Of a stretch of DNA of 64,000 bases, positions 9,993 through 35,628 are shown piece by piece. This DNA comes from Candidatus Micrarchaeota archaeon (GTDB lineage: Archaea; Micrarchaeota; Micrarchaeia; Anstonellales; Bilamarchaeaceae). Numbering within the stretch: the stretch's first letter is position 1; each line of letters starts with the position of its first letter. The stretch is from contig JACRGD010000005.1 in NCBI GenBank assembly GCA_016212525.1, positions 90,304 to 154,303 on the forward strand. Reading direction: 5' to 3'. Made by a program: the position numbers and the translations under genes. The notes under the pieces were generated by a model. It was not told where the DNA came from. It saw only the letters and a list, made by a program, of their open reading frames with translations, and searched no databases.

Positions 9993-10832
9993 CTATTCTG
10001 TCGAGTCTGTTCTGGTGCAATTGCCCTCAACGCTAACTAACAGTTGTGCCTGCATCAGCTGAGTTTCATATCCCTGCATCTGCACGCAGACTTGGTTTTG
10101 CAAGAACCTTCTGCACTGTCTTCGTGCATATTGGCTATCAAGTCCTGATAGGTAGAAATGCATGTCCCATCTATCGGTTGGATCATCTGTATTTCGAACT
10201 ATGAGTTCCAATTCCGGTCCGTGGTTGATCCGACCTTCGCCATATATGCACCAGCCCCGACAGTAATTTATGTCTCTGTTGTATTGACCAAGTTCGACTT
10301 GATAGCTGTTTGTTTGGTTTAAATCCCAAACTACTAATGGTTGTGTTGCAGTTGCAAAAGCTCCCGTAGTTCGAGTATCTGTGCAACTCGTCTCACAGAC
10401 TTGTTCTATCTGCATCGCTACGTGCATCGCGTCTACTCGGTATCGAAATAAAATTGTAAATGGAGTGCTATTTCCCATATCGATAAATGGAGCGTATTGT
10501 ACTCCTCCTCCTTCGCCTACTCCGTGCCAGCCCTGACCGTAATTTAATGAAAGATCCGTCGTTGTCGGTCCGATGCCGTGTATCTCTATATCATCATTTC
10601 CTCTGACTATTATGTTTATGAGATCTGATCTAAGGACTGATGCAGGATCGTTCTCGATCAGAATCCCTCTAACCGGTTCGGTTTGACAGCTTAATCTTGG
10701 AAAACGAGGATCCCGAAAGTGATCTAGTGGAATGGGAACTGGCTGGTTCTGCATTGGTTGATCTGGTAGTGGAGCGCATGAGATCGTGGCTGCAATTATG
10801 CCTGAGCCAAGTGTCAATCTGAGTTTTTTCAC
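9993..10832 (-). CDS. secreted lipoprotein (hypothetical), divergent from the membrane-protein cluster
   Basis: GTG start. Signal peptide with the lipobox-like ATISC. Cys-containing soluble domain with no recognised motif. Confidence 0.5.
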   Translation of the reverse strand: MKKLRLTLGSGIIAATISCAPLPDQPMQNQPVPIPLDHFRDPRFPRLSCQTEPVRGILIENDPASVLRSDLINIIVRGNDDIEIHGIGPTTTDLSLNYGQGWHGVGEGGGVQYAPFIDMGNSTPFTILFRYRVDAMHVAMQIEQVCETSCTDTRTTGAFATATQPLVVWDLNQTNSYQVELGQYNRDINYCRGWCIYGEGRINHGPELELIVRNTDDPTDRWDMHFYLSGLDSQYARRQCRRFLQNQVCVQMQGYETQLMQAQLLVSVEGNCTRTDSTE

Positions 10833-10934: not shown

Positions 10935-10942
10935 TTTATAAA
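10935..10942 (+). promoter_or_regulatory. putative TATA box (TTTATAAA) for a leaderless cluster transcript
   Basis: TTTATAAAC ends about 22 nt upstream of the GTG at 10964. The same TTTATAAAC core recurs at 28204, upstream of the last cluster gene. Confidence 0.4.
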
Positions 10943-17306: not shown

Positions 17307-18365
17307 ATGACTGACGCGACAATGATAACCGGATATTTGAGGGGCTTTGATGTAGGCGCCCTATCTACTATAGATCCGGCATTTCAATGGCTTCCTCTTT
17401 GTCTTGGTGCAGCAGTTCTTACAATTACTGTTTATGCCCTTATTTACGGTCTTTCAAAATCCTTCAATCTTTCAGAATTAGAACGCCATTCTAAATCCGA
17501 GCTTCTTAATGCCGGAGCGACTGCGCTGATTGTCATTTTCATCGTTTTTCTAGTTACTCAGATGGAAACATTTGTGATCGGTTCTGTTCTATGCAATGGT
17601 GCGACCTGTGCTACTTTGCCCTGTGGCGGAGTAAGTTATGAAATCCGTCAGCTCTCAACTGTTTTTGATGTTATTCAATGTCGAATGTCCGAGCGGGCAC
17701 ATTCGTTTGCAGATTTACAGGAACAGGTTACTTCTGCCGCTATTCTTCCAACTTCTCTGTTGAACCTTAATCTTGGTTTAGTTGGGACTCAGGTATTTTC
17801 CGGTTATATGGTCGGTTCCTGGTACAAGGAGGTCGAAACATATCGATTACTTAATCATGCACTCTCAACCTTTCTTATTTCAACTAATGCAATGATCGTT
17901 GTGGCACAATACATAAAGCAAAATTTACTCTCGTTTTTCCTGCCTATCGGGTTGCTTTTGCGTTCGCTCTATTTCACCCGCGGAATCGGTGCTTTCCTGA
18001 TTTCTTTTGCTCTTTGTTTCTATTTCATTTTCCCAATTGTCTATACTCTTACTGATTCGAACTATATTCCGCCTTCCTATTCAGCTCCGCCAACCCCGCC
18101 TGAAATTAAATCCCAGTTCTGCTATCCCACATTTACTGGCGTAGTCTATAGTATCTATTCTTCAACCTCATCCGCTTCACCCTCAGCCGGTTCAAACTCT
18201 ATTTCACTTGATGAACTTAGGTCTTCTCTTTCTTCAGTCTATATTTCTCTATTAGTCCAGCCATTCGCCTGCTTTGCCATAACTCTGGTTTTCGTTCGCT
18301 ATATGACCTACATATTTGGAGGAGAAGCCCAGGATGTGCTTCGAGGAGTCGCAAAAGTAGTTTAG
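17307..18365 (+). CDS. polytopic membrane protein, paralog 6 of 6
   Basis: About 352 aa. I prefer the ATG at 17307 to the TTG at 17304. Motifs YALIYG...LSELERHSKSELLN, LRSLYFTRGIGAFLISFALCFYFIFPI and tail FGGEAQDVLRGVAKVV. Confidence 0.8.
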   Translation: MTDATMITGYLRGFDVGALSTIDPAFQWLPLCLGAAVLTITVYALIYGLSKSFNLSELERHSKSELLNAGATALIVIFIVFLVTQMETFVIGSVLCNGATCATLPCGGVSYEIRQLSTVFDVIQCRMSERAHSFADLQEQVTSAAILPTSLLNLNLGLVGTQVFSGYMVGSWYKEVETYRLLNHALSTFLISTNAMIVVAQYIKQNLLSFFLPIGLLLRSLYFTRGIGAFLISFALCFYFIFPIVYTLTDSNYIPPSYSAPPTPPEIKSQFCYPTFTGVVYSIYSSTSSASPSAGSNSISLDELRSSLSSVYISLLVQPFACFAITLVFVRYMTYIFGGEAQDVLRGVAKVV

Positions 18366-18374
18366 GTGCTCGAT

Positions 18375-21300
18375 ATGAAAAACCGAAATCTGATCCTGAT
18401 TTTATTCCTTTTACTCGTATTCTCCGGTTGTACTCTTAGAAAGCCTGTTAGCTATGGCTGCTGTGTTGTTGATGAATCAGCAGCTACTCCTTCGTGCACT
18501 AGACTTCGTGATTCTTCACCTAGTTTGGTTTCTTTAGTTTCGACAAATCTTTGTCAAATGGACAATGGCCTATGCAACGTTACTCTTAGGCTTACCTTCT
18601 CAGACGATCCCTCTGCTGCAAGAACCGAAACTGCGATCATTCCAATCTGCACAAATACGACTTCAAAATGCGTTTCTGGCGACTGTACTGCGATGGTCTG
18701 CGGTCCATTTAAGTATGATCCAAGTCCGACTCCAAGTTTTTCAGATACTTCCCGTGCTACTTCCTCCAGTGCCTCTTTAGCTTCAGATTCCTCTTATTCG
18801 CTTGGTCTTTACAACAAAACCTGCAGATTAGTTGATGCCGGATCAACATTGGACAACTTCTTTACTAATACAAAAGGCAGTTTTGTCAATACGTTTAGAT
18901 TCGGTTTTGGATCTTCCTTTTCCGAGTTCGACGCTTATCGATATCTGTTTCCAACAAGCGACTTTTTCTGCAGTGTAAATCCCGATGATAATGCAAAAGA
19001 TCGATATATGAACTATATGATGTCTCCTCTGGATTTCCAGGATTATATGCGAAGCGCTCTTGCGATCAAGCCACAGGACCGTGCATCAGCTGGAAACTTC
19101 TGTCCAGTAAACAGCGTCTCGCCTTTCTTCTCGACGACCTATTTCAATTCCCCATTTCCAAACTATATGCGAAATTTTGTAAGTCGCCAGAGGTATATTT
19201 ACAATACTACGATTACTACGCTTCCGCCTTCTGGAGGTTCAGGGTCTTCTAGCTTTGAACAAAACTATTCCTTTACCAAAATCGAGTCGTATAACTTTAC
19301 ACAGCTCGATAAAAAATTCTATGGAGGAACATTGCCGCTTATCTATTCTACTGCTTTAGAGGGCTTTGATTCTATCAATCGCGCGGCTCCATTTGAGTGC
19401 GAATCTCCAACCCAGTGTATGTCTGGTTTATGCAACTATGAGGACTATCGAAGATCGATCTGTAAAATTGGCTCTACCTGGGTCGAGTGCGGTTGCGATA
19501 AAAATGCCCGAAAATGCGTTTCCCAAACTTCTATTTATAATCGAACTATTGCAGGAGCAATTCCAAACACTGCCGCTGCTCTCCAAACCTATGTCGATGC
19601 ATATCAGGATCGTGGCGCTCTTTACAAAACTCAGGTGATTTACAACGCAACTGTTCATTACGCACGAATTGATCCTGATTGTAGCAGTGGTGTCGTAAGA
19701 AAAATCGATCCTCAGAATTGTGGGGATCGTGGTGAGACCTGTTTTGATATGGGTTCTTCACAAGTGCCCGATTCGCCAATTTTTCCCTCAAGTGTCCAAT
19801 TCTTTGGTGAGGTCCGGGAGGGTTATATTGGATATAGCTTTTTGAGCAGGGATGACTTTGAAAAGACTGATCTTGTACGTAATTGTCATCTGGAACCGGG
19901 TAGAGATTATATTGTATCTGGTTCGAGTGGCCCTCCGGCTGTTGATCCCACTGAACTGACTTCAGAAGAAGTCACTGCTGTTACTGCTACTGGTGCGATT
20001 TTTAGACCGCCTTCTCCAATTCCAGAGCGAATTGGTTATCAACTCGGGCGTAGGCCTCATTGCGCTACTCTCGATGAGGGTCCAGATGATCTTGGTCTTT
20101 ATACTTACGTAAGTGAAGCGATTTTAGTTCGATCTGCTGGTGATTGTGAATTGGATGGCAATACGCACATGCCAATAACAAAGACGTTTGGCTGGTGTGA
20201 AGGTTGTACTTTCTCCAATATTGCAAAACAGGTTCTCCTTAGCAACGATACCAAGCCCTATGTCCCGCTTGTCGATATTAAGTCTCCTCGGGAAGGTGCG
20301 GCATTGAATTTAACTGCGCCTGTTTGTAATTTCGCTAAAAATCCAGTTGCAATTTCAGATCTTCTTAGTTATCCCTATAATACTACGATAACCGGTGGTG
20401 GCAGTTCGCCATTTGATCCATATCTAAGTCCGGTTATTCCCTCTGATATTACCTGTCCTGGCTATGAAACTACAATCAACACACGTCAAAGTAACTTCAC
20501 TTTAACTTCAGTCGATTCTGTTTACTTAGGTCAAAAGGAAGCAGAATTCTTTAGAGAAGGAACTCTCCCTGTTCTTGATTTATCAGATTCTTCCAATTGG
20601 GATTCTCAAAATAATCTTACCATTACTCAGAGTCTGATCGATCGGGGACCGGCAGTCATTATAGTTTCCAAGATCGCTACCTATCCCTCTTCCGGATACT
20701 TAGATACCTTGGGAGATCGGCTTTCGAATATTCGCGCAGTCTGTAAGAACTGTCTTACTTCAGTTGAACTTTCCTTGCCATTTACTTCTGAGAGCACTGC
20801 AAGTGGCAGATATTTTGGTGATTTCTTTATTCTCGATGCTCTTAACCGCTCTGCAGTTTTCGATAATATTGATGTAATTTCCTATGATTACTATCCAACT
20901 GAACTGATTAGAGATCATACTACTTTCTGCACTGGTTCTTCATTGATTCGAAACCAGTTATTAGTCGATTCAATTGCCAACTTTTCCAGTACAATGCTTC
21001 GAAGATATGCTCCTAAGTATAAGCTGAGTTTAATTCCTACGTTTTACTTTAGTTCCAGCTGTCTTAATGATGGGAATGTTTCTCTGGTCTTTAACTATCT
21101 TTTGAAGAATCAGAAGACTCTAAGTCGCAGTGGCTTAATTGGAATAATCTATACTGGTGATGCATCTACTTATTATGATTCTGGAGGGCATTCCACCGAT
21201 GCATTCTGTTCTATCGATAAAGGTGCAAAGAATATGCTTTCTTCCGAACCGCTTACTGTGTATTCCAAGCTACAGACTACTCCTGCCGGAAATCTAACCT

Positions 21301-21827
21301 GCCAGGTTTGTAGTGATGCAGATCTGGCTCTGGGACGTTGTAATCCGATTTGTGATAATGGGGTTAGATGTACTAATCCTGATAGTGGTTTTCTTACGGA
21401 TGAAGCATTTCGCCTCCATCTATCTAGGGGTTCGGATGTCCCTCTTAAATGCCCCTCCAATTCCATCCCAGAACCCTGCACGCCCTGCTCAGCCAGGACT
21501 GAAAGAATGTCCTGTGATTTCTTTTTGGCCGATGGTAGTTCCTATTCTCAGACCTACAACCTTAGAGATCTTTCAGCAGCTACACCTGATATTATTTCCA
21601 GTATTCCATCTCCCTACAAATGTTGTGTTAGTGATCCAGGACGCCCAACAAACTATACTTTCAACAAGCAGACTACTGTAGATCACACTGTTGCTCCTAT
21701 TATTTTCTCAAGAGCAGGTGATCCAAGGCAGGACTGCGGAGTTTCTGATCTTTCTCTCTTAACTCCTCAGATGTGCGGTGCTGATGCTCCATTTAAGAAT
21801 TATCGATTGAGATGCAGGATCATTTAA
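18375..21827 (+). CDS. giant secreted cysteine-rich lipoprotein, probably N-glycosylated (unknown function)
   Basis: About 1150 aa. The ATG at 18375 is preceded by GGTG. Signal peptide ends in the lipobox-like VFSGC. I count roughly four dozen Cys by hand and many N-x-S/T sequons. No C-terminal TM segment and no recognised domain. Confidence 0.8.
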   Translation: MKNRNLILILFLLLVFSGCTLRKPVSYGCCVVDESAATPSCTRLRDSSPSLVSLVSTNLCQMDNGLCNVTLRLTFSDDPSAARTETAIIPICTNTTSKCVSGDCTAMVCGPFKYDPSPTPSFSDTSRATSSSASLASDSSYSLGLYNKTCRLVDAGSTLDNFFTNTKGSFVNTFRFGFGSSFSEFDAYRYLFPTSDFFCSVNPDDNAKDRYMNYMMSPLDFQDYMRSALAIKPQDRASAGNFCPVNSVSPFFSTTYFNSPFPNYMRNFVSRQRYIYNTTITTLPPSGGSGSSSFEQNYSFTKIESYNFTQLDKKFYGGTLPLIYSTALEGFDSINRAAPFECESPTQCMSGLCNYEDYRRSICKIGSTWVECGCDKNARKCVSQTSIYNRTIAGAIPNTAAALQTYVDAYQDRGALYKTQVIYNATVHYARIDPDCSSGVVRKIDPQNCGDRGETCFDMGSSQVPDSPIFPSSVQFFGEVREGYIGYSFLSRDDFEKTDLVRNCHLEPGRDYIVSGSSGPPAVDPTELTSEEVTAVTATGAIFRPPSPIPERIGYQLGRRPHCATLDEGPDDLGLYTYVSEAILVRSAGDCELDGNTHMPITKTFGWCEGCTFSNIAKQVLLSNDTKPYVPLVDIKSPREGAALNLTAPVCNFAKNPVAISDLLSYPYNTTITGGGSSPFDPYLSPVIPSDITCPGYETTINTRQSNFTLTSVDSVYLGQKEAEFFREGTLPVLDLSDSSNWDSQNNLTITQSLIDRGPAVIIVSKIATYPSSGYLDTLGDRLSNIRAVCKNCLTSVELSLPFTSESTASGRYFGDFFILDALNRSAVFDNIDVISYDYYPTELIRDHTTFCTGSSLIRNQLLVDSIANFSSTMLRRYAPKYKLSLIPTFYFSSSCLNDGNVSLVFNYLLKNQKTLSRSGLIGIIYTGDASTYYDSGGHSTDAFCSIDKGAKNMLSSEPLTVYSKLQTTPAGNLTCQVCSDADLALGRCNPICDNGVRCTNPDSGFLTDEAFRLHLSRGSDVPLKCPSNSIPEPCTPCSARTERMSCDFFLADGSSYSQTYNLRDLSAATPDIISSIPSPYKCCVSDPGRPTNYTFNKQTTVDHTVAPIIFSRAGDPRQDCGVSDLSLLTPQMCGADAPFKNYRLRCRII

Positions 21828-21833
21828 TCTTGC

Positions 21834-21866
21834 TGTTTTTTCCTTATTTTTCTATTATTTTATGAT
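21834..21866 (+). terminator. possible oligo-T archaeal termination region
   Basis: T-runs (TGTTTTTTCCTTATTTTTCTATTATTTT) directly after the 21827 stop. A TTTATAAAA box follows at about 21887, before the next gene. Confidence 0.3.
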
Positions 21867-21932
21867 ATTTTCCTCAAAAACCAGTGTTTATAAAACCTAT
21901 TAAATCCTATTTATCTTGTTGGATGGGTTGCT

Positions 21933-22322
21933 ATGCAATTTTTGAAAGATGTGAATTTGAAGGAAGTTTGTATATCTATTCTTATCTCAATAGTTTTATT
22001 CCTACTTCTTAAACCATTTTACGTATACAATGTATCTCTTGTTTGTGGAGGTTCAAAAGAAGTATTTCTATACTCTACCGGTTCAGATCTTTTTAGGATT
22101 CGAGGTTGTCTTTATACTTCCATCAATCAGCCATTTCAAAACTTAGTCTGGGATCTTCTAATTTATACTTTGCCTTGGATTCTGGCTTTCTGCTACTATT
22201 ACTACAAAACACCAAATGTTAAATTTGATTTCAAAATTTTGCCTTTTGGTTTAATCCTGTGTGGTTATCTGCTTTTTCAAGTGCTCTATATATTATATAT
22301 TTATCCAGGTAATCTCCTATGA
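21933..22322 (+). CDS. small integral membrane protein (hypothetical)
   Basis: 129 aa with three or four hydrophobic helices. Its stop overlaps the subtilase start (ATGA). Confidence 0.5.
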   Translation: MQFLKDVNLKEVCISILISIVLFLLLKPFYVYNVSLVCGGSKEVFLYSTGSDLFRIRGCLYTSINQPFQNLVWDLLIYTLPWILAFCYYYYKTPNVKFDFKILPFGLILCGYLLFQVLYILYIYPGNLL

Positions 22323-24925
22323 GACTTGCAACTGGGGCTATCTCTAACCATCATCGATCTATTGAATTGAAAAAAGAAAAAAGACTAGCTCTTTTTTCTA
22401 CAATTGCGCTTGCAGGTTTAGCCTCCTGTGTTGTTGATTCTCCACCTGACCAAAATCGATTTGGATTCTTAAATGAAATTCATTTAACAAGTCCGACTAG
22501 ATTTGTTCCATTTAGGAGGTCTGGTTTTAGTTCCGATCTTTTAGTTGGAGAGAATCAATTTTTGCTCTATTATGAGCCAGACATAAGTCCAGATCAAAAA
22601 AACAGAATTGAAGATTGGCTTTTAGGACAAAATGCACGCAAGGTTGGTCAGAACCCCTTTTCATCAATGACTCAATATGAAGTTTTTTCTTCAGTTCAGC
22701 TAAATTCGATCTTAGATTACCTTAATGCGCAGCCCGGAGTCGTTACTGCTATCCCTAATCTGGTCCTTAGACCAACTCTAAATCCCGATCCTGATTTGTC
22801 AACCTCTTTCGATTCGGGTAACTGGTGGTTAACTTCCCTTAATCTTAGAGATGCCTGGTCTATAACTACTGGCTCTAGAGCGATTCCAATTGCAATAGTT
22901 GATTCAGGAATAGATTCTGGAGTTGGTGGTTTTGGAAGTAAGCCTATCACTCATTTTGTAAGATGTACTAGACCTATAGGTGGTAGAACAGAGGTTTATT
23001 TTTCTCTTTTGGCAGGTTCTAATCCGTACCATTGTTCTCAATATATTTCTGGTGTTCATGGAACGCAAGTTGCATCGATTGCAGCGGCACCTGGAGATGA
23101 CCATTTGGGCGGTGCTGGTGTTGCGTGGCAAAATCCATTGATCTCAATTGATGCTTATGGTTACTCTGGCGTCGGATCAGTAACTCTTGCTGAGACTGAT
23201 GCTGCAATCCAAACTGCAATTAGGGCAGGAGCACGTGTGATAAATGTCTCACTTGGATATGGGGGTTGTATTGCTCCTCTTTTTTGTATTTCTAACAATC
23301 AAGAGGCTCGTCATATTTTCCGGTCTGGTTTTATCAATTCCGCTCGTGTCGCTAATCGAAACAATGCCTTAGTTGTCTTTGCCGCAGGCAATGACGGTTT
23401 TTCAGGTGATGATAGTTGGCTATCGCCAGCTGATAGACAATACGAAAGATATTTCATAACTAATGTTCTTTTTGTGGGGTCGGTTGACTATCTCAATGAT
23501 CCGACCTGTAATGCTTGTAATTTTTCATCTGCTCTCCAAACTATTTGCAGGGATAATGGAACTTCTGACTTAAGCAGGTTGAATCGATGCAATTGCTTTT
23601 GGTGTAGTAGTTCAACTTTAAGTGGTCGATTAACTGCCAGCGGCAGAGTAGTAGAATTGTATACTCCTGGCTGTCACATTGCGGTTCCTATGAGTAGCAC
23701 CTTGGTCCAAGGTAGTTCGATATCTTCCCCAATGGTCTCCGGAGCAGCCGCTCTAGTCTGGTCAGTAAATCCAAACCTTACAGCCCCGCAAGTAAAACAG
23801 ATTTTGTTGGATACGGCTCGTTCTGCATCTAGTCTAGGTGGTTGTATGGACGTAGGTAGAGGTATCCCCGATGTTGCAGCCGCAGTCCGGGCAGCAAGAG
23901 CAACTTTGCAGGATGCTTCTGTTCCGACTGATGCTTCAGTTGATGCAACTTCCGATGTATCAAGAACAACGACATTCTATTCTCAAGCACGTTTACTCAG
24001 AAACAATGATGTCCTTCTTCGTGGAAATGAGGTTTTACCTGGTACTCATTATTCTGCCCTTCTAACGAGACTTAGTTCAAGTGGTCGACCTCTTTGGACA
24101 TTTCAACCCTCTAGATCTGAATCGCAAATTGGTGCTTTATATGAAGATGAGCGGGGTCTTTGGATCTCTGGGAGATGGCAATCTGGTGGATCAACTTCTA
24201 GAGCTGCACTTGCCCAACTAGATAGTTCAGGAGCTCTAGTTTCAGAGCGTTTACTTCCAGACTCAGATCTAATAAGAAGTCTTTTTGTAAACCCAGACGG
24301 CTCTCTGGTTGGTGATACTGGTTATCAATTATTTGAATATGATAGTTCTGGTCGCCCAGTCTGGGTAACTCGTGCCCGTCCTGCTACTCCTTTTGATGTT
24401 GTAAGAACTTCTGCTGGTTATGCCTTTTTCCGTTATAATGGATTATATGGTGTAAACCGTACTGGTAATATTGTTCTGGATTCTGGGTATGTTATAGGTC
24501 ACGATAATTCCTTTGCATATTCTCCAAATGCTGGTTCTGGTTGGTATATTCTAAGTGATTCTCCGTTCTCTGATCAATCCTTATCTCATCTAGATTACGA
24601 AGGACACTCAAGATTCTTAGGCCAATTATCCATTCCCAATTTACGTGCTTTTGATTCTCCAAATTCCTTGGCAATGACTAGGGCAAGTCGGTCCTTTGTT
24701 CTTTTTGCCCGTTACCATACTACTGATGGTGCCGGTCAAACAAAACTTTTTGGAGTTTCTGATTCTGCCACGATTCTTTGGTCAAGATCTCTTGATTTTA
24801 GGGCTCGAAATGTTGATGGTTTAATGACTACTTCTGACGGTCGCATCCTTCTTGTCTCAACTGACAATACAAATCCCTCGCAAGTTAGGCTTGATTATTT
24901 TGATGAATCTGGCAACCCTCTCTAG
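22319..24925 (+). CDS. S8 subtilisin-like serine protease with a C-terminal repeat (beta-propeller-like) region
   Basis: Catalytic contexts AIVDSGID (Asp), HGTQVASIAAA (His) and GSSISSPMVSGAAALV (Ser). Lipobox-like LASC near the N-terminus. The C-terminal ~330 aa carry repeated SGRP(L/V)W-type strands. Confidence 0.85.
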   Translation: MRLATGAISNHHRSIELKKEKRLALFSTIALAGLASCVVDSPPDQNRFGFLNEIHLTSPTRFVPFRRSGFSSDLLVGENQFLLYYEPDISPDQKNRIEDWLLGQNARKVGQNPFSSMTQYEVFSSVQLNSILDYLNAQPGVVTAIPNLVLRPTLNPDPDLSTSFDSGNWWLTSLNLRDAWSITTGSRAIPIAIVDSGIDSGVGGFGSKPITHFVRCTRPIGGRTEVYFSLLAGSNPYHCSQYISGVHGTQVASIAAAPGDDHLGGAGVAWQNPLISIDAYGYSGVGSVTLAETDAAIQTAIRAGARVINVSLGYGGCIAPLFCISNNQEARHIFRSGFINSARVANRNNALVVFAAGNDGFSGDDSWLSPADRQYERYFITNVLFVGSVDYLNDPTCNACNFSSALQTICRDNGTSDLSRLNRCNCFWCSSSTLSGRLTASGRVVELYTPGCHIAVPMSSTLVQGSSISSPMVSGAAALVWSVNPNLTAPQVKQILLDTARSASSLGGCMDVGRGIPDVAAAVRAARATLQDASVPTDASVDATSDVSRTTTFYSQARLLRNNDVLLRGNEVLPGTHYSALLTRLSSSGRPLWTFQPSRSESQIGALYEDERGLWISGRWQSGGSTSRAALAQLDSSGALVSERLLPDSDLIRSLFVNPDGSLVGDTGYQLFEYDSSGRPVWVTRARPATPFDVVRTSAGYAFFRYNGLYGVNRTGNIVLDSGYVIGHDNSFAYSPNAGSGWYILSDSPFSDQSLSHLDYEGHSRFLGQLSIPNLRAFDSPNSLAMTRASRSFVLFARYHTTDGAGQTKLFGVSDSATILWSRSLDFRARNVDGLMTTSDGRILLVSTDNTNPSQVRLDYFDESGNPL

Positions 24926-25160
24926 CTCCAATTTCCATTTAGTTGTTATTTTTTAATACTCAAATTCTATGACGTTATTTTTTCTATTTCTCTTAGTTCT
25001 AAAGATTCTCTCCCGTTATATTTTTCTATTCATATTTTATCTATTTACCACTCTTGGTGTGTTATTTTACACCAAAATCTCAAAACAGTGTGCCTTCCTA
25101 GGTCCTTTTATACCTTTTGATGTACTGGTATTATGTGATTATGTTAAAAAGGTGAAATAC

Positions 25161-26102
25161 ATGAGCGTTCCAAGGATGAAAACAATCGGGAGTAGAGTTG
25201 GATCGTTGGTAGTAGTAGCCGCTTTGACTGCGCGTTGCGGTACGGCTGCACCTCCGAATATGGGAGAACCCATGACAGATGTTCCTACTATTAAGAATGA
25301 TGCTGGCGTTGTAAATCCTCGGGATGGGCCCGTTGTCCCTCCACGTGATGTTGTAATTCCTAGTGATTCTGGTAGTTCAAGATGTACTGTTGCTCCGAAC
25401 TCCGTTCCAGCAGCTAATCAAAGACCAAGGGTAGATCATGTTCGTAATGGTGAAATAATCTCTATTGCAACTGCTTCTGGAAACAATCTGGTTAAGGTTG
25501 GAGTATATGACTATAATGATACTTTGGCACCTACCGGACAGGCAAGTGCACCTCGTTTACCTCCAAATCTAAGACATGTAGTAACTCTTAGTCCAGTTCG
25601 TGATCCTTCATCCTGCGCTCGTGGAACTCCCCCTTGCGAATGTACTGAGGAGCCCTTTAGTGGAAGATCTATGCGATTTTATGAGGGTAATTTTCCTTCC
25701 ATTCTTTTCCCTGAATTTCGAGCTGATGATGTCAAGGTTCAACTAGCTTTCGTTTCTTCAACCGGGGTTGCTGACTTGTTATTATTTCGACCTCCTTCTA
25801 TAGATCGATATACTCAAGTCGGTGCTGTTCATATTCCTACAACTGAAGGCACCACTGTCTCCATGGCAACCATAACCTTCACTTCACAAGGCACTCCTGA
25901 TTTCAGGTTTCTTGGTGATCCAGCACGTGCCTTGCTTGCTGAAGGTTCTATATCAGGAACTGTTGTTCCTATGACTATTTTGGAATCCAGAGATCCCGTT
26001 TCTAGTTACTGTATGCTCGGATCGACTCTCTACCGATTCCAGAGTCGTCTTCCTACTGGTGGCTCTGATGCATCAGTAAATGTGAGTTCAGTAACCTTCT
26101 AA
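25161..26102 (+). CDS. secreted lipoprotein (hypothetical)
   Basis: I prefer the ATG at 25161, which is preceded by GGTGA. Signal MSVPRMKTIGSRVGSLVVVAALTARCG. The upstream part of track ORF 24969-26102 is a low-complexity hydrophobic run and is rejected. Confidence 0.55.
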   Translation: MSVPRMKTIGSRVGSLVVVAALTARCGTAAPPNMGEPMTDVPTIKNDAGVVNPRDGPVVPPRDVVIPSDSGSSRCTVAPNSVPAANQRPRVDHVRNGEIISIATASGNNLVKVGVYDYNDTLAPTGQASAPRLPPNLRHVVTLSPVRDPSSCARGTPPCECTEEPFSGRSMRFYEGNFPSILFPEFRADDVKVQLAFVSSTGVADLLLFRPPSIDRYTQVGAVHIPTTEGTTVSMATITFTSQGTPDFRFLGDPARALLAEGSISGTVVPMTILESRDPVSSYCMLGSTLYRFQSRLPTGGSDASVNVSSVTF

Positions 26103-26131
26103 TCTTTTAATTTTTCTTTCCTTCTTTTCAT

Positions 26132-27103
26132 ATGCTAAAATTTCTTTTTATTGTTGTTTTTTCTATTGGATTAGTTAGTTCTGTTTCTTATATCTCTAAT
26201 TGTACGGTGATAACTAAACCCGGAACTTATCTTCTTGATCGTGACATCCTGGTTTCACCAGCAGAACTTGGTAAATGTATTTTGATTGATTCGGATAATG
26301 TTGTTCTGGATTGCCAGAATCATACTTTGAAAAATGACCCGGCCGCTCCTTTGATGTCTGGTATTCAAGCTTTTTATCAGAACAATCTTACTGTTCAAAA
26401 TTGTATTTTGGATGGTTTTGGATCTGGTATTTCAATCCACAAAATTAATAATTCCATCTTTCATGATAATCTGTTCACTCATAATTCTGATGGTTTTATT
26501 ATGAGTTTTTCTCGAAATGTCATGTTATATTCCAACCAATTCTTTAGAAATGAAAACGGTCTTACTGTCAGTTCTCTCATAAATCTATCTTTTTATGATA
26601 ATGCGGCGATCAACAACTCCCATTATGGTTTTGATATTATTGCCAATTTATCAGATATTAACTCAAACTCTGCTTCTGAAAATCAGGTTGGTTTCAGTGT
26701 TTCCCTTTATGATGGTAATTTTACTAATAATTCAGCAACTCGAAATAAGGATGGTTCTGGTATTTCCGGTTCCAATGTTAATGTGAACAAAAATTTTTTC
26801 TCAAACAATTCTGAAGATGGTCTCTCCCTAAGTTTGGAAAACTCAAATATCTCAGGTAATTTCATTTGCGGCAATGGTTTCTCGGATAGCTATCACTATT
26901 ACGATCTCTATGGAAATTATCCTCAGTACAATAACTCCCTCCAAAACAACACTTGCCAGACTTCAAATCCTCCGGGGAATTGCAATTCCCCGTGTTCTCT
27001 TTCTTCCTCCCTGCAGATTTCATCAAAACCAGGTTCTTGTTTTGGGCTTGCTATTCTCTTTACTGTGATTTCTTTATCTCTACTTTGGAAGGGCTTCCAA
27101 TGA
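26132..27103 (+). CDS. right-handed parallel beta-helix (PbH1/NosD-like) repeat surface protein with a C-terminal TM anchor
   Basis: Signal peptide, then about 9 degenerate ~22-aa repeats rich in N/G/S (NxxxxNxxxGI/F...) that are typical of PbH1 coils. C-terminal hydrophobic anchor CFGLAILFTVISLSLLW. Confidence 0.65.
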   Translation: MLKFLFIVVFSIGLVSSVSYISNCTVITKPGTYLLDRDILVSPAELGKCILIDSDNVVLDCQNHTLKNDPAAPLMSGIQAFYQNNLTVQNCILDGFGSGISIHKINNSIFHDNLFTHNSDGFIMSFSRNVMLYSNQFFRNENGLTVSSLINLSFYDNAAINNSHYGFDIIANLSDINSNSASENQVGFSVSLYDGNFTNNSATRNKDGSGISGSNVNVNKNFFSNNSEDGLSLSLENSNISGNFICGNGFSDSYHYYDLYGNYPQYNNSLQNNTCQTSNPPGNCNSPCSLSSSLQISSKPGSCFGLAILFTVISLSLLWKGFQ

Positions 27104-27729
27104 AGGGCTATTTCACCTGGTTTCTGGTTCTTGTTTGCGTGCTAGTTATCCTTTCTGGTTATGCTCTCTATGCCAAAAGCATGCAAAATGTTCAATCAAA
27201 GCAAATTTTTCTTTTACGTTCCGAGCATTTGGCCCAAAATGTTGTTGAAGCTAGCGGAGAGCTAATGAGACAAGAAATTAAGCGAAATTTTACTGCATAC
27301 GATGAATCTCGGTTTCTTGTAAACTGTCTTGCGTGTCCTAGTCATTATTGTCTTCCCTACGTTCCTGCTTATGCCCCTGACGAATTAAAGGCAAAAAGGT
27401 GTGATGAAAGGAAGTGCGATCTCTGTTTCGAACCTTCCGTCGCCTCCTCCGAAGCAGAAAAAGCAGGAATTCAAAACTTCCACCAGACAGACAATTACGA
27501 CTGGGATTCAGATTACAATATCTCAATAGAAGAACCCAAAATCAAAGTCTTTCTAAAAATAGATCCATTAGCTAAAAACGGGTATTCTCTAGACTATTAT
27601 GAAGTTACACAAGATTCTCTAATTCGCATGAGTTCAGAAAAATTCCATTTTGAAGCAAATTACACTCTTCCAAAAGGTTTCGCATTAACCTACGAGCAAG
27701 ATGCTCCGATTATCTTCAAGATCCGATAG
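27100..27729 (+). CDS. N-terminally anchored Cys-containing protein (hypothetical)
   Basis: ATG at 27100 overlaps the previous stop (ATGA). One TM segment (FTWFLVLVCVLVILSGYALY). Cys cluster CLACPSHYC...CDERKCDLC. Confidence 0.55.
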   Translation: MKGYFTWFLVLVCVLVILSGYALYAKSMQNVQSKQIFLLRSEHLAQNVVEASGELMRQEIKRNFTAYDESRFLVNCLACPSHYCLPYVPAYAPDELKAKRCDERKCDLCFEPSVASSEAEKAGIQNFHQTDNYDWDSDYNISIEEPKIKVFLKIDPLAKNGYSLDYYEVTQDSLIRMSSEKFHFEANYTLPKGFALTYEQDAPIIFKIR

Positions 27730-27758
27730 CTTTAATTCATTCTCCGAGTTGATTCTTT

Positions 27759-28184
27759 ATGGATGGTTTTAGGTTTTCTGTGCTTCTGACAATTTTCTTT
27801 AGTGCGGCTAGCCTCCTTTTCTTGATCGTCTACGTTTTGCTTCCTCCTATTTTCTCTGTTATCATAGGCGAATCTAATGTCCCTTCTTGCGAACCTCTAA
27901 CTCCACCTCCTCCTTGTCGATCGGGTGGAGTTTGCCTTTATGAGCCTCCCCTTCAACCTATCTGTCCCAGTGCCCGAGGTCTTCTGGGAATTGTGGGTTT
28001 GTTTTTTATGGTTCTAGCGTTCCTCTCCAACCTCATCGCCAATATCATCGCAACCAAGAAAATCCTTGCATCCAAATCTTTCGTTCGATTTGATAAGCGA
28101 ATCTGGATCGCTCTAATCTGGCTTATTGGAACAATTGGTGTTTCTCTGTACTACTTTAAGGAATATAAAAATAACAAATCTTAA
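27759..28184 (+). CDS. small membrane protein with a Pro/Cys-rich loop (hypothetical)
   Basis: 141 aa with three TM segments. Loop sequence SCEPLTPPPPCRSGGVCLYEPPLQPICPS. Confidence 0.5.
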   Translation: MDGFRFSVLLTIFFSAASLLFLIVYVLLPPIFSVIIGESNVPSCEPLTPPPPCRSGGVCLYEPPLQPICPSARGLLGIVGLFFMVLAFLSNLIANIIATKKILASKSFVRFDKRIWIALIWLIGTIGVSLYYFKEYKNNKS

Positions 28185-28234: not shown

Positions 28235-31200
28235 ATGAAACGGGTATTCCTCCTAACCCTCCTGTCTCTGTTAGTATTGTCATTCTCAATTGGTCCTGGT
28301 TCTACCGAGCCAGTGCCCACTACTGACAGTATCGACATCAGTGGAATTCTTGGTTCTGGAACTGTAACCGAACTCGTCGCTTCGGGTCTAATTAGTCCGG
28401 AGTGCAGCCTTTGCGAAGATCTTTCAGCATATTCTCAATCTTTTCTCAATATTATAAATGACGATACAACCTCACATCTTCAAATCGCCCTTACTAATTC
28501 TTCACGAGCCCCTGTACAGCGCGCTCCGATAATTCTTCGAATAAATGGTAGCGGTTCTGACACCTATCGCGTTGTCTACACCAACAACCGGGGAATTGCA
28601 TCTTTCGATTACGGTCCATACAATACGAGCTGTCAGAAATTCACAGCATTCTACTGCTATGGCTACAATTCCTGCTCTTTCCTTAAGTGTCTCCATGCCC
28701 TGGGTTTTGAAGAAGGCAGCGAGCCATACTCTGATTTTAGTTCAGTGCCATTATCTCCAAGAACCATTCGTCCAACTCTTCGCCAGAGCCCTGCTCTTGT
28801 CAAATCGTCTTCGGCTACTTTCAACTACTGTCCAACTCCGACTACTACCGTTTCAACAACTCCGGCATTCTGCCTTCCTTTAGTTCTAATCGCAGTCCTG
28901 CTTCTTGGCGCTCTATATGTCTCAGGTCGAAATCCCTTTATGGCGTTCGATCTTTCCAATCCTCATGTAGGCAAACACATCCGCTATACTGCACGACAAA
29001 GAAACATTTATCATATGGATACTGTCGGTGCCGCAACTGCCATTACTAAAGTAGTCGGTGCTGTTGCAAATCCAACCCAGACCCGCTCTACTGAGAGTCA
29101 ACAACTCAGATCTGGTTCGGGAATGGTGGGTTTAGCAGGCGGTCTTACTGGTGGAATCCGTGGTGCGGTGCAGGGAGCTAGAGGTCTTGGTACTGCTGTC
29201 CGATCTGCTGGCGCTAATGCCCGAAACCCTACTGCTACTGGTCCTAGGCCAAGTACTGCCCGGACAATTGGCAATGCTTTTACACAATCCCTGGGTGGTT
29301 CTTCTCTTGGTCGTATGATTGGCGGAATTGTAGCTGCCGGCCGAGGTGGCGATCCATCTACTACTCTCTTAAGTCGAATTGGTAACATTGCACTAGCAGT
29401 TCTTACGAACAGTAGCTTCGGATATCTTGTTTCTGAACTTGGCGCTACGGTTCGATCACTCCGACTCGATGCAAATCTTGAGCGGGCATTACAAAATTAC
29501 ACCAACTTCCAGCATCATGTCGATCGAAGAGAAACTACTACTGTTGATGGTGAACAGGTTACCGTTACTATGCGCTACACGCTCACCGCAAGAAACGGCA
29601 GAATGGAAATGACTGTTGCCCAGGTTCGTGAAAATGGCGATGTTATTCCAAATTCCAGCCGGCCTGTTTTGCAATCTGCTCTTCCTGAAGAAGTTTCAAG
29701 ATCTTTCGGGACTCAAATTCACGACCGTGCACTAACTTACTATCGGACTTCTGCAGTTGAAAACGGTCGCTCGGCAAATGACGAGACGATTCGTCTTGGT
29801 CAATTGGCATCCGCTGCTGCTTCAGGTCGAAGTCTTTCTGACTTAGCTCCGGATAGTCCACTTCGCGCAGCTCTCGCAGCAAATGGTCTGGTCTTTGGCA
29901 CATCTGATGAGCGATTACAACTGGGTCGCGCTGTTGCTGCAGCACTTACTGATCCTTCTGTTCAAAGTAGTCCTGCGTTCTGGGAAGCACTTTCCTCTGC
30001 AGTAGGTGAGCGCAATGCCCGTGAAATGTTCGTATCTGCAAACCGGATAGTTGCTTACAATGCCGAAGCAGCATATTCCGAGCGTCGGGCGGCTTTATTG
30101 GAAACAATGCCTGGTAATGTTATCATGTCCAATCAAATGTTCATGGCATATCAGTCGCTCATGGCCCATGCCAATGGATCAGCTGCACAGAACCTCGCTG
30201 CGACTGCTTTGGCTAATGTTGCAAGTTCTACTTCAGAATCCTTTTCCTTTAATGCCGGAGGCGAACAAGGTGGTTCATTAATTGGCCGGTTCAGAACTGC
30301 AGCTGATCTAGCTGCTGCTTCTTCAGAGCAGGATCTTGCAATTTTAGGTATCGCCCGGGCCACTGCACTTAATCCCCAATTAAACATTCCAAATGTGGGT
30401 AATATGCTCGAGCGATTTAGTGCAGATCCTATTGCTAATGATGCTGCCGGTCTCCTTGGTGCAAATGCTGAACAATTTAATCGAGCTACTGTAGCTGATG
30501 GTACTAGAGTTTATTCAGAATCCGCAGCTGAAGTTCGGGATTACTGGCGTGGTATCGGTCAACTTACTGGTGTTTATGCCGCTTCCGAGGGCGATTCCAT
30601 GGCAGCCGCCCGACTTAATCTCCCAACGATTGCACAAATTACTACTAATTTCACTTCTGACGATAGTCATGTTGATGCCACTCGTTATGTCCGTGCGCTT
30701 GTGCATGCTCAGATGAATGGAGATAGTGTTCAGTTAGATCGCATTTTGGCTTCTTTGGATCGCTATGGTCATGCATCCGATCCAGAATCCCGGGCTGCCG
30801 AATCAGTTCGATTAAGTACACTCGAATCGGTTTCAACTGCCCAAGCAAACGTTCGTGCACAGGGCCTTGAAGTCATAGATCGTCAGAGAACATTCGAGTT
30901 TGCAAGGCGCGATCTTCAACAGCAGATCGATGCTTTGCCTTCGGACGATCCAAGGCGTTCAATATTAGAGCAGCGAATCGAATCTCTTGCAGCTGCATAT
31001 GTTCAATATACTGAGGCCTCATCTGCCCGCAGTGCAGCACCTGGTGTTGAAACTTCCCAGGTGGGAGTTACTACCGATCGACTGTTCCTTCAGGCAGATG
31101 CAAACTTCCGCACTCTTGTTGCGACTTCCCTTGGCGGTCGAATCGATGGCTATATAGAGACTAATCTATCTGCTCCTGCAAGAACCCAATTCGTTGAGGA

Positions 31201-35024: not shown

Positions 35025-35576
35025 CTATTTTCCTGATTTCTTCTCCTTTGTCTGCTTTTTAGCCGCGCCTTTCTTCTGCTCTGCATTGCCTTTACTTGTA
35101 TTCATCTTTAGTACGTCTCTCTTTCTCATGCCCTCTAAATGATATGGCATGATTATTTTCTTTTCTTTGGCAGAAACAAAGCTCATCTTCTCTTCCAGTT
35201 CATCGTCAACATGGCCTGCGCTCACTACGTTTTTGAAGCCAAGTTCGCGTGAAACCTGCTTTAGTTGCGAGAACATTTTTCCTTCGCAGGTTACCCCATC
35301 CTCATTTTTCACGACCCGATGTTCTATTCCGATCTGTTTTGCTACTCTTCTGATGTCTTCCAATTCTTCTTTTGGATAATTAAATGGTAAAACTGTTACT
35401 GCGATTGCCTTATCACCTAGCTCTTCTCTGCATACTCGTGCGAGTATTGTGCTATCTAGACTTCCTGAGAATGCAACAAGTGTTGTTTCGAGGTTTCTTA
35501 TTCTTTTGCGTATCCGATCCTCGCTTCCGGCTAATGTTTTATCTACGCTTTTTTTCGTTACTTTTTTCTTTTGCAT
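35025..35576 (-). CDS. PP-loop ATP-pyrophosphatase-family protein (COG1606/LarE-like, short)
   Basis: VAFSGSLDSTILARV is a variant of the SGGxDS PP-loop. The C-terminal tail is lysine-rich. Confidence 0.5.
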   Translation of the reverse strand: MQKKKVTKKSVDKTLAGSEDRIRKRIRNLETTLVAFSGSLDSTILARVCREELGDKAIAVTVLPFNYPKEELEDIRRVAKQIGIEHRVVKNEDGVTCEGKMFSQLKQVSRELGFKNVVSAGHVDDELEEKMSFVSAKEKKIIMPYHLEGMRKRDVLKMNTSKGNAEQKKGAAKKQTKEKKSGK

Positions 35577-35628
35577 ACTTATAATCTCTGTTGCTTTGTA
35601 TTTTAAATTTTGGGGACGTACTTATCCC

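Follow-up and report, generated by a model that had tools for sequence, protein, structure and literature searches.

The CYS gene and its neighbours

In the window, that is, the whole 64,000-nucleotide stretch of DNA analysed, the gene named CYS occupies positions 18,375–21,827 of the forward strand and ends with a stop codon at 21,825–21,827. It encodes a predicted surface lipoprotein, and the length of about 1,150 residues given in an earlier note on this DNA corresponds to a real ORF of 1,150 aa. The reading frame runs from a GTG codon (18,366–21,827), but translation probably begins at the ATG at 18,375, which lies 10 nt past the stop codon of the preceding gene, P6 (18,363–18,365), where the earlier note had placed it. 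A Shine–Dalgarno-like AGGTG at 18,364–18,368 on the same strand overlaps the P6 stop codon and is located 6 nt before the ATG.

CYS is preceded on the forward strand by an array of six paralogous genes, P1–P6. P1 (10,964–12,202; 412 aa) is a polytopic membrane protein according to its ORF and TM segments, and in every full locus the array begins with a one-to-one ortholog of it. P2 (12,199–13,218; 339 aa) overlaps the P1 stop by 4 nt, and P3 (13,215–15,098; 627 aa with 27 Cys) has a large Cys-rich, predicted extracellular loop between TM4 and TM5. P4 (15,095–16,174; 359 aa) and P5 (16,179–17,303; 374 aa) were assigned by ORF, TM segments and synteny. For P6 (17,304–18,365; 352–353 aa), five TM helices are predicted, together with long helices that extend out of the membrane; its database copy, P0155, is 352 aa long, as would be expected if translation began at the second codon, the ATG at 17,307. 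The median number of Cys in the long loops of the array paralogs (those listed being of P3) was 32, or about 9% of the residues, and Cys parity in the paralog loops, the boundaries of which are crude, was not significant (20 even, 13 odd).

The TATA-box-like sequence TTTATAAA at 10,935–10,942 (+), about 25 nt before the start codon of P1, is a candidate archaeal promoter of the putative P1–P6–CYS operon. The oligo-T runs (T6 and T5) at 21,836–21,851 (+), just past the CYS stop, may form an archaeal terminator, and a further putative TATA-like element, TTTATAAAA, was read at 21,887–21,895, upstream of the gene following CYS. The sequencing runs containing the CYS sequence were DNA runs only.

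The coupling of CYS to the membrane paralogs, which the earlier note had proposed from this operon, was seen both in the window and across the phylum. CYS directly followed the six one-to-one orthologous 5-TM paralogs in 49 of the 51 evaluable distinct loci, so the expectation that its orthologs always follow the array was borne out apart from two loci (L005 and L021), where CYS was found without an array directly upstream. The junctions in these loci were mostly between −4 and +3 nt, with stop and start codons overlapping or abutting, and the order P1–P6 then CYS was kept across deep divergence (22–41% identity), even in the locus of the very divergent member P0103. A further conserved gene, BIG (28,235–31,996, forward strand), encodes a bitopic protein of 1,253 aa composed of a signal, a conserved ectodomain of about 200 aa, a TM segment, a juxtamembrane motif (SGRNPF..FD.S.P..GKH.RYTA) and a long, poorly conserved tail. 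In 30 loci its ortholog came immediately after CYS, and in 19 it lay upstream of P1 in divergent orientation. Since BIG always adjoined P1–P6–CYS in the loci examined, it completes a conserved module of eight genes. All eight members are annotated as hypothetical proteins, and no description of the module was found in the literature searched. This synteny supports a functional tie between CYS and the membrane paralogs, and suggests that CYS may also associate physically with P1–P6 and BIG.

The CYS protein, its family and its predicted fold

The N-terminus of CYS, MKNRNLILILFLLLVFSGC, consists of an n-region and an h-region followed by a lipobox-like FSGC (signal peptide and lipobox, aa 1–19, ending in VFSGC; 18,375–18,431, +), in which Cys19 is the presumed site of lipidation and cleavage. 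The positively charged MKNRN and the hydrophobic LILILFLLLVF are typical of a Sec-type signal. As this is the sole segment of CYS with a 19-residue Kyte–Doolittle mean above 1.6, no further TM anchor is predicted, and thus both the lipobox and the lack of a TM anchor claimed in the earlier note were confirmed. L-[ASF]-G-C was present in about all full-length relatives: Leu occupied position −3 in 59 of 115 sequences, Ala, Ser or Phe was found at −2, and Gly at −1 in 112 of 115, the last count coming from a search pattern that itself demanded Gly, Ala or Ser at −1. The lipobox Cys fell at median position 20, and the family consensus has a CC pair about nine residues past it.

The count of 49 Cys in CYS (4.3%, compared with 0.2–2.7% in most other ORFs of the window) agrees with the earlier estimate of roughly four dozen. 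When the lipobox Cys was excluded, 97 of 116 family members had an even number of Cys in the mature protein (p = 8.6e-14), which indicates an oxidised, disulfide-bonded ectodomain and fits with the pairing of all Cys residues except that of the lipobox. Cys columns also make up the bulk of the invariant positions in the family alignments. Together with the lipobox, this parity supports the assignment of CYS as an extracellular, lipobox-anchored protein. Such a parity test is a simple and reusable means of recognising lipid-anchored, fully oxidised ectodomains from sequences only. The glycosylation potential noted earlier was upheld in part: CYS contains 18 N-x-S/T sequons, where shuffles that keep its composition gave 11.3 ± 3.0 (p = 0.025), a real but modest enrichment, while the relatives hold 0–40 sequons, and therefore sequon richness is lineage-specific rather than a trait of the family.

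Exhaustive search of representatives yielded a CYS family of 256 unannotated clusters at 50% identity (E ≤ 1e-3). A word-indexed homology search missed almost the whole family, giving three matches, or two with a 15-sequence profile. Every named source was a member of Micrarchaeota (DPANN), and all confirmed loci belonged to this phylum. When 185,579 species genomes were scanned by motif, 52 matches were confirmed, each of them in Micrarchaeota, and the five bacterial matches were due to chance. The CYS family thus appears to be restricted to Micrarchaeota, where it appears phylum-wide and mostly single-copy; no cultivated Micrarchaeon was among the loci found by the motif-dependent scans.

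Neither the protein, nor 30 relatives, nor consensus sequences gave a significant domain match in Pfam, NCBIfam or PDB sequences; one family member matched DUF4015 at E 0.078. The statement in the earlier note that no domain could be recognised therefore holds at the level of sequence, but not at that of structure, where a glycoside hydrolase (GH)-like TIM barrel exists. In the AlphaFold2 (AF2) model (pLDDT 73.4, pTM 0.72), the Cys-rich N-terminal region (aa 20–704; 18,432–20,486, +) has no recognised fold, and its consensus sequence still had no Pfam match. The family's most conserved motif, N172-x-F-R-F-G-x-G ... F-P-x-S-D196 ... D-R-Y-M-N-Y (aa 165–215), is located here, outside the barrel, and the region also has an FGWCEGC motif at aa 605–611 and hot spots of lineage-specific insertions at aa 226–300 and 426–600. 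It is followed by a clan GH-A-like (β/α) barrel (aa ~705–990; 20,487–21,344, +), recognised by Foldseek and by its DSSP pattern of seven to eight alternating β/α units with pLDDT 85–95, from which its limits were inferred. The C-terminal Cys-rich β domain (aa 991–1,150; 21,345–21,824, +) was delimited by alignment conservation and the AF2 model, and the near-invariant Cys residues assigned to it include those of CxxC (976/979 and 1,035/1,038) and CC (1,083/1,084) motifs. In total, about 75% of CYS received no fold assignment from the AF2 model and Foldseek.

Almost all of the top 50 PDB matches of the CYS model belonged to clan GH-A, namely GH53 (galactanase 6GPA), GH5 (mannanase 4LYR/4QP0), GH10 (xylanases) and GH26, with E-values from 3.6e-5 (best match, probability 1.0) to 1e-3 and modest TM-scores of 0.3–0.46, normalised to the target. 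BFVD returned the same theme, weak TIM barrels only. Like these enzymes, CYS would be extracellular, but the identity is 9–16%, no GH sequence family was matched, the acid/base and nucleophile Glu are not conserved, and the barrel is embedded in a Cys-rich lipoprotein of 1,150 aa. Among 127 aligned relatives, no conserved Glu was found at any barrel strand end, the clan GH-A catalytic positions (ends of β4 and β7) lacking it under either plausible strand numbering; the conserved barrel residues were D735, R782, D833, K883, G920, G923 and Y926. Two further insertion hot spots in the barrel, aa 726–750 and 926–950, probably correspond to β–α loops on the catalytic face of the model.

Alternative explanations of the module

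The paralogs gave a series of faint matches to type IV secretion (T4SS) and Ced components. The P4 consensus matched NCBIfam CedA at E 2.2e-5 (residues 141–240 on profile positions 102–202 of 259), far below the curated cutoff, and CedE was matched weakly by P6 (E 0.005, residues 191–249), its consensus (0.0076) and the family consensus (0.022). In P4, P6 and the family consensus the same TM3–loop–TM4 segment was aligned to the same region of the CedA/CedE profiles. The N-terminus of the P1 consensus weakly matched PF18895 T4SS_pilin (E 0.013) and that of P2 matched PF04956 TrbC/VirB2 (E 0.0032), and further matches were to ICE pilin-like and IcmL/DotI families. By hydropathy and the AF2 model of P6, P1–P6 also resemble VirB6/CedA in topology, with about five TM segments and a large extracytoplasmic loop, and CedE, like P6 as predicted, is a five-TM, VirB6-like protein (PMC11868833). 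These matches, thematically consistent with each other, raise the possibility of a diverged T4SS- or Ced-like conduit importing host DNA or macromolecules, where P1–P6 would be channel subunits of the VirB6/CedA type with a helical, VirB2-like hairpin at the N-terminus and CYS an extracellular cap or adhesin, with a VirB5-, VirB7- or VirB1-like role but not homologous to these proteins. Against it, all scores were far under the curated cutoffs (14–24 bits for CedA/CedE versus 330–400), and hydrophobic hairpins are prone to draw spurious matches. The P6 model (pLDDT 72) had no PDB fold match at E < 0.1 in Foldseek, only generic helical bundles, even though solved VirB6 structures such as 7O3V (PMC11868833) should be in the library, and the paralog profile retrieved only AcrZ noise from PDB sequences. 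The module has six fixed paralogs, whereas Ced has one or two, and CYS has no Ced counterpart. The conserved module contained neither a VirB4/CedB-type ATPase nor a VirB2-type pilin gene. The closest HerA-like ATPase gene (45,777–47,285, opposite strand, 24 kb away) was considered as a motor and discounted, since its best score was to HerA and its neighbours are housekeeping genes. Tandem arrays of VirB6 paralogs, enlarged polytopic proteins with big extracytoplasmic domains, are known from the rvh T4SS of the obligately host-dependent Rickettsiales, where they sit with VirB4, VirB8–11 and VirD4. The module resembles them in its tandem polytopic array in a host-dependent organism, and differs in lacking VirB4, VirB8–11 and VirD4 and in belonging to another domain of life. 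Overall, we regard the conduit as a tentative and rather unlikely explanation.

The barrel itself invites another explanation, by which CYS would be an active, free-standing surface glycoside hydrolase harvesting or remodelling glycans, for example host sugars for the cell's own N-glycosylation, and the merely co-transcribed paralogs an uptake system. In the Sus-like systems of Bacteroidetes, a surface lipoprotein binding or hydrolysing glycans is paired with a membrane transporter. CYS resembles these as a lipobox-anchored protein with a GH-type domain in one putative operon with membrane proteins, but there is no homology to SusC, SusD or SusG, the archaeal envelope is monoderm and the catalysis by CYS is doubtful. 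The putative lipid-anchored surface location and the conserved polar residues D735, D838 (46% Asp, 12% Glu) and Y926 at or near strand ends would suit an enzyme, and Micrarchaeum harzensis N-glycosylates its S-layer yet is unable to make the sugars (bioRxiv 10.1101/2021.04.28.441871). However, neither of the two catalytic Glu is conserved, no GH Pfam match was obtained even with consensus sequences, and the loops on the presumed catalytic face are insertion hot spots, which makes an active hydrolase decidedly unlikely. By analogy with the GH-A enzymes, the barrel without conserved catalytic Glu and with variable catalytic-face loops would thus more probably serve as a glycan-binding head than as a conserved hydrolase, the ligands being glycans of either the host surface or the cell's own S-layer; the barrel may be lectin-like or structural.

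We also considered a structural role in the envelope, in which CYS would be a component of the S-layer, or else an anchor or pillar that crosses the pseudoperiplasm and links the S-layer with the membrane, and the paralogs would be its membrane base. Such a role would accord with a large, glycosylatable protein, lipid-anchored and rigidified by disulfides, the distribution of which is that of a core envelope part, and Micrarchaeota do possess an S-layer and a pseudoperiplasm of 20–25 nm (bioRxiv 10.1101/2021.04.28.441871). Nevertheless, the experimentally identified S-layer protein of the phylum, SLP_Mh (Micr_00292), which is likewise a large glycosylated surface protein, belongs to another family with PF05123 domains and almost no sulfur amino acids (same source). 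CYS, with no PF05123 match and its high Cys content, was rejected as the Micrarchaeota S-layer protein, and the resemblance suggested in the earlier note was abandoned. No S-layer protein occurred among the Foldseek matches, and the hypervariable insertions are more suggestive of an interaction surface than of a lattice; a structural role is accordingly quite improbable. A HAP2/fusexin-like fusogen or viral-type glycoprotein forming cytoplasmic bridges with the host, a possibility raised in the earlier note and supported by general features only (a large, Cys-rich, glycosylatable ectodomain in a symbiont), is hardly credible, as the significant Foldseek matches of the full-length model were all TIM barrels, the top 50 in PDB and in BFVD including neither class II fusogens nor viral glycoproteins, CYS has no C-terminal TM anchor, and it resides in a chromosomal, vertically inherited core locus.

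Proposed role of CYS and the module

Considering these results, we hold it somewhat probable that CYS serves an undescribed, Micrarchaeota-specific eight-gene envelope machine as its extracellular subunit, which probably binds glycans. CYS would be translated from a polycistronic P1–P6–CYS message, exported by the Sec pathway and, judging from its N-terminus, probably cleaved and lipid-modified at Cys19. Outside the cell, it would form a rigid multidomain ectodomain with about 24 disulfides and N-glycans. Its most likely place is the cell surface or the pseudoperiplasm, where the six 5-TM paralogs, whose own Cys-rich loops would also point outward, would carry it as a hetero-oligomeric platform, with BIG as the eighth component. 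The earlier note had described CYS as the extracellular working part, or cargo, of the assembly. Its extracellular location is supported by the lipobox and Cys parity and its tie to the paralogs by the conserved gene order, and we favour a fixed subunit over released cargo because of the strict, stoichiometric-looking synteny and the predicted lipid anchor.

Cryo-ET of the micrarchaeon ARM-1 has shown a barrel-like docking structure of about 21 nm in its envelope (PMC11329633). In the boldest reading, which we consider unlikely, the module would be the Micrarchaeota side of the host–symbiont junction, a T4SS/Ced-derived, pseudo-six-fold port, possibly this very structure, taking host DNA, lipids or metabolites, with CYS as a cap that recognises glycans and owes its host specificity to the hypervariable insertions. 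More generally, the module may mediate host contact.

Micrarchaeota, which are tiny symbionts, and other DPANN archaea rely on their hosts for lipids, sugars and nucleotides. For the molecules that make the contact with the host and move these goods, the locus is a concrete candidate that appears both phylum-wide and phylum-restricted, composed of eight genes in fixed order with tight translational coupling and carrying a massive, apparently disulfide-bonded extracellular part. If the CedA/VirB6 and VirB2 signals were true, T4SS-like machinery would reach DPANN in a new, ATPase-less genomic form, and if the module were the contact or uptake apparatus, host contact would become accessible to experiment.

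The Cys-rich gene and the unit to which it belongs

The frame of the Cys-rich lipoprotein gene (CYS) occupies 18366-21827 (+) in the ORF list (1153 codons), and translation likely starts at the ATG at 18375, with an AGGTG (18364-18368) ending 6 nt upstream of it. The stop codon of P6, the last of six 5-TM membrane paralogs (P1-P6, 10964-18365 (+)), lies at 18363-18365, leaving a 10-nt gap to this ATG. The product is 1150 aa long with the N-terminus MKNRNLILILFLLLVFSGC, and its sole strongly hydrophobic stretch consists of residues 3-26. It contains 49 Cys (4.3%), well above the content of most ORFs in the window, and 18 N-x-S/T sequons, a modest enrichment over shuffled sequences (11.3 ± 3.0, p = 0.025). 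Pfam and NCBIfam searches gave zero matches. The earlier note had described the ORF in the same terms (gap, signal, Cys and sequon content, lack of a recognised domain), and this description was borne out as stated.

The proteins P1-P6 (412, 339, 627, 359, 374, and 353 aa, respectively) are true paralogs, which show 15-23% identity, a common architecture, and a shared cytoplasmic-loop motif, LPLG..LR.F.FTR..G. Five columns (E66, R220, R226, G229, and P244 in P6 numbering) were invariant in 60 paralog sequences. Since each paralog of the window best matched the same array position in related loci, the six are one-to-one orthologs. A TATA-like sequence, TTTATAAA, is located ~25 nt upstream of the P1 start, stop and start codons overlap or abut throughout the array, and T6 and T5 runs at 21836-21851 immediately follow the CYS stop, succeeded by a new TATA-like box ahead of the next gene. 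Judged by general archaeal promoter and terminator features, these signals would fit a single P1-to-CYS transcript. Divergent from P1 lies the gene of a 279-aa protein (9993-10832 (-)) that contains 9 Cys and whose signal resembles a lipobox (…ATISC); it had no family match and is not kept beside the module in other loci.

The gene order was compared in 61 distinct loci, 51 of which had enough upstream sequence to be judged. A paralog ended directly upstream of the CYS gene in 49 of the 51, mostly with junctions of -4 to +3 nt. The coupling noted in the window is phylum-wide, with two true exceptions. At L005, the closest relative, subtilases lie upstream of CYS, and at L021 the CYS gene is solitary and preceded by its own intergenic region; L025, an apparent third exception, was an artefact of the ORF-start rule used. 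Where fewer than six paralogs were found within 9-10 kb upstream, the genes were longer. The same order was seen at the very divergent database relative P0103 (0.68 Mb contig). A homolog of BIG, a 1253-aa bitopic protein (28235-31996 (+)), was always near CYS: in 30 loci it immediately follows CYS, and in 19 it precedes P1 in divergent orientation. The conserved unit thus comprises eight genes. In BIG and its orthologs (L002, L023-L030, L054, L060, L062-L078), a conserved signal precedes an ectodomain of ~200 aa with paired Cys, a TM helix and a strongly conserved juxtamembrane motif (SGRNPF..FDFS.PRMGKH.RYTARGRG). Their tails of 1000-2500 aa (total lengths 1050-2785 aa), very large and fast-evolving for so small a cell, are barely alignable across species and probably cytoplasmic.

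The genes between CYS and BIG (21933-28184, all +) form an insertion specific to the window's own clade and absent from other Micrarchaeota. They encode a small membrane protein of 129 aa and a subtilase of 868 aa, whose signal is lipobox-like (...GLASC) and which has weak mycosin-like matches. Of the remaining products, one is a secreted protein of 377 aa, one is a NosD-like beta-helix protein that has a C-terminal TM and 4 sequons per 100 aa, and two are further small proteins, either membrane-bound or secreted. The beta-helix gene and a 258-aa gene are common to the closest relatives, L001 and L005, the latter also having subtilases. Other neighbors in the window are archaeal housekeeping genes (among them adenylosuccinate synthetase, ELP3, argG, argH, HerA, tRNA-intron endonuclease, and ScpB). 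A 654-aa protein (35449-37413 (+)) carrying the Lon C-terminal protease domain alone (no AAA+ match reported) and 2.1 sequons per 100 aa has an ortholog as a conserved downstream neighbor of the module in many loci. The HerA-type ATPase (45777-47285 (-)) has a HAS barrel and DUF87 and lacks a NurA-like neighbor. It further matches NCBIfam CedD (E 1e-25) and, weakly, TraC/VirB4 models, and in several related loci it lies at a similar distance downstream, inside the housekeeping block.

Restriction of the family to Micrarchaeota

The window originates from a groundwater metagenome, and its sequence was present in DNA runs only. A word-indexed protein search found just two CYS relatives (41% and 25% identity), while a profile search run exhaustively over 1.84 billion representatives gave 256 clusters at E<=1e-3 and 157 at E<=1e-30. 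All named relatives are annotated as 'hypothetical protein' of Candidatus Micrarchaeota. Three back-translated scans with one genome per species yielded 18, 42, and 15 confirmed loci, all from Micrarchaeota (Micrarchaeia, Anstonellales, Bilamarchaeaceae, 'ainarchaeum' MAGs). An exact degenerate DNA pattern of the top conserved motif, N-x-F-R-F-G-x-G-12 residues-F-P-x-x-D, was also run across 185,579 species genomes and gave 57 matches, 52 of which were true family members, every one from Micrarchaeota; the other five, in bacterial MAGs that encode no CYS relative there, were due to chance. As far as scans based on motifs can show, the family occurs in this phylum alone, across which the CYS gene is locked to the six membrane paralogs and the giant bitopic protein. 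A few MAGs carry two CYS copies (PMV_4.13, L032 and L048; CSMAG_931, L095 and L114), and in PMV_4.13 both copies have their own full P1-P6 array.

A secreted, Cys-paired protein with a GH-like barrel

The signals of 115 full-length relatives terminate in L-[A/S/F]-G-C, the Cys of which has a median position of 20, and a CC pair usually follows 9 residues past the lipobox Cys. If this Cys is lipid-modified and all others form disulfides, the mature chain is expected to contain an even number of Cys, and 97 out of 116 relatives have such a count (binomial p = 8.6e-14); with its 48 Cys, the mature window protein could form 24 disulfides. Cys columns predominate among the invariant positions in every CYS alignment. 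Four near-invariant CxxC motifs (aa 605-611, 790-793, 976-979, and 1035-1038) may be structural disulfides or metal sites; one stands in a thioredoxin-like W-C-x-x-C context (FGWCEGC), where the model has strands and no thioredoxin fold. The long loops that the paralogs, mostly P3, expose outside the cell likewise contain ~9% Cys; the presumed assembly would be rich in disulfides over its entire outer face. In P3 (13215-15098 (+)) this is a ~330-aa insert in the TM4-TM5 loop, and in other lineages P3, P4 or P5 is enlarged to 700-1500 aa (P3/P4 orthologs in L057, L062-L078); paralog and CYS ectodomains seem to expand together in some clades. Sequons range from 0 to 40 per relative, thus heavy N-glycosylation is a feature of lineages rather than of the family.

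The AlphaFold2 model of CYS, built from a 30-sequence alignment, had a mean pLDDT of 73.4 and a pTM of 0.72. Foldseek against the PDB gave 30 matches at E<=1e-3, and the top 50 were nearly all clan GH-A glycoside hydrolases (GH53 galactanase 6GPA, E 3.6e-5; GH5 mannanases, GH10 xylanases, and GH26), besides a few other TIM-barrel proteins, for example, triose-phosphate isomerase. A viral structure library returned the same TIM-barrel theme more weakly. The match was assigned to aa ~705-990 because this stretch, in which strands and helices alternate at pLDDT 85-95, is the sole beta/alpha-alternating region of the model. Among 127 relatives, D735, R782, C790, C793, D833, K883, G920, G923, Y926, F944, and C945 are conserved in the barrel, and no glutamate is conserved at the strand ends by either plausible strand numbering. 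Of the family's four insertion hot spots, two (aa 726-750 and 926-950) also fall into the barrel and two (aa 226-300 and 426-600) outside it. Since the ligand face is variable and catalytic residues are not kept, the modeled barrel resembles a module for binding rather than a conserved enzyme; it could still have a non-canonical active site. The other three quarters of CYS, among them the top conserved motif (aa 165-215) and FGWCE[GP]C, had no sequence match, even as a consensus, and received no fold assignment.

Possible roles of the module

The fusogen reading that the earlier note had proposed to check found no support in hydropathy, in the viral library or among the top 50 PDB matches, which are TIM barrels and include no adhesin, S-layer protein or fusogen. 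The likeness to S-layer proteins had to be rejected as well: proteomics and freeze-etching have identified the S-layer protein of Micrarchaeota, which carries PF05123 domains and is almost devoid of sulfur amino acids (bioRxiv 10.1101/2021.04.28.441871), whereas CYS gave no PF05123 match and contains 4.3% Cys. The other part of that interpretation, an extracellular working part of the paralog assembly, agrees with the present results.

A lead to type IV secretion came from the paralogs. The P6 model (pLDDT 72) has five membrane helices, several of which are 35-50 residues long, project past the bilayer and carry small beta hairpins at their tips. It matched no PDB structure at E<0.1. CedA and CedE are VirB6-like parts of the crenarchaeal DNA-import system, CedE having five TM helices (PMC11868833). 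P6 matched NCBIfam CedE faintly (E 0.005), two of 60 paralogs matched CedA (best E 1.2e-4), and in consensus searches CedA was matched by P4 (E 2.2e-5) and CedE by both P6 and the family consensus, in each case with the TM3-loop-TM4 segment on profile positions ~102-202 of ~260. Weak matches to T4SS_pilin and TrbC/VirB2 came from the N-terminal hairpins of P1 and P2, respectively. These leads are faint but all point in one direction. All scores are an order of magnitude under curated cutoffs, the module contains no VirB4/CedB-type ATPase or pilin gene, and the HerA-like gene, located 24 kb downstream, has HerA as its best-scoring model and is surrounded by housekeeping genes. We regard the link as a lead, not a finding; that these sequence matches reflect homology is possible and rather doubtful.

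Literature searches revealed no description of the eight-gene module, which we rate as a system without a described counterpart. The eight products may assemble into one envelope complex, in which CYS would be the lipid-tethered extracellular head and would bind glycans, and the complex could act in uptake, in contact with the host or in the architecture of the envelope. In a cultivated micrarchaeon, a ~21-nm barrel-like structure was seen by cryo-ET in the envelope of the symbiont, at the site to which nanotubes of the host dock (PMC11329633); that the module forms this structure is speculation. If the CedA/VirB6 signal were confirmed, the module would represent a very divergent form of type-IV-secretion-like machinery.
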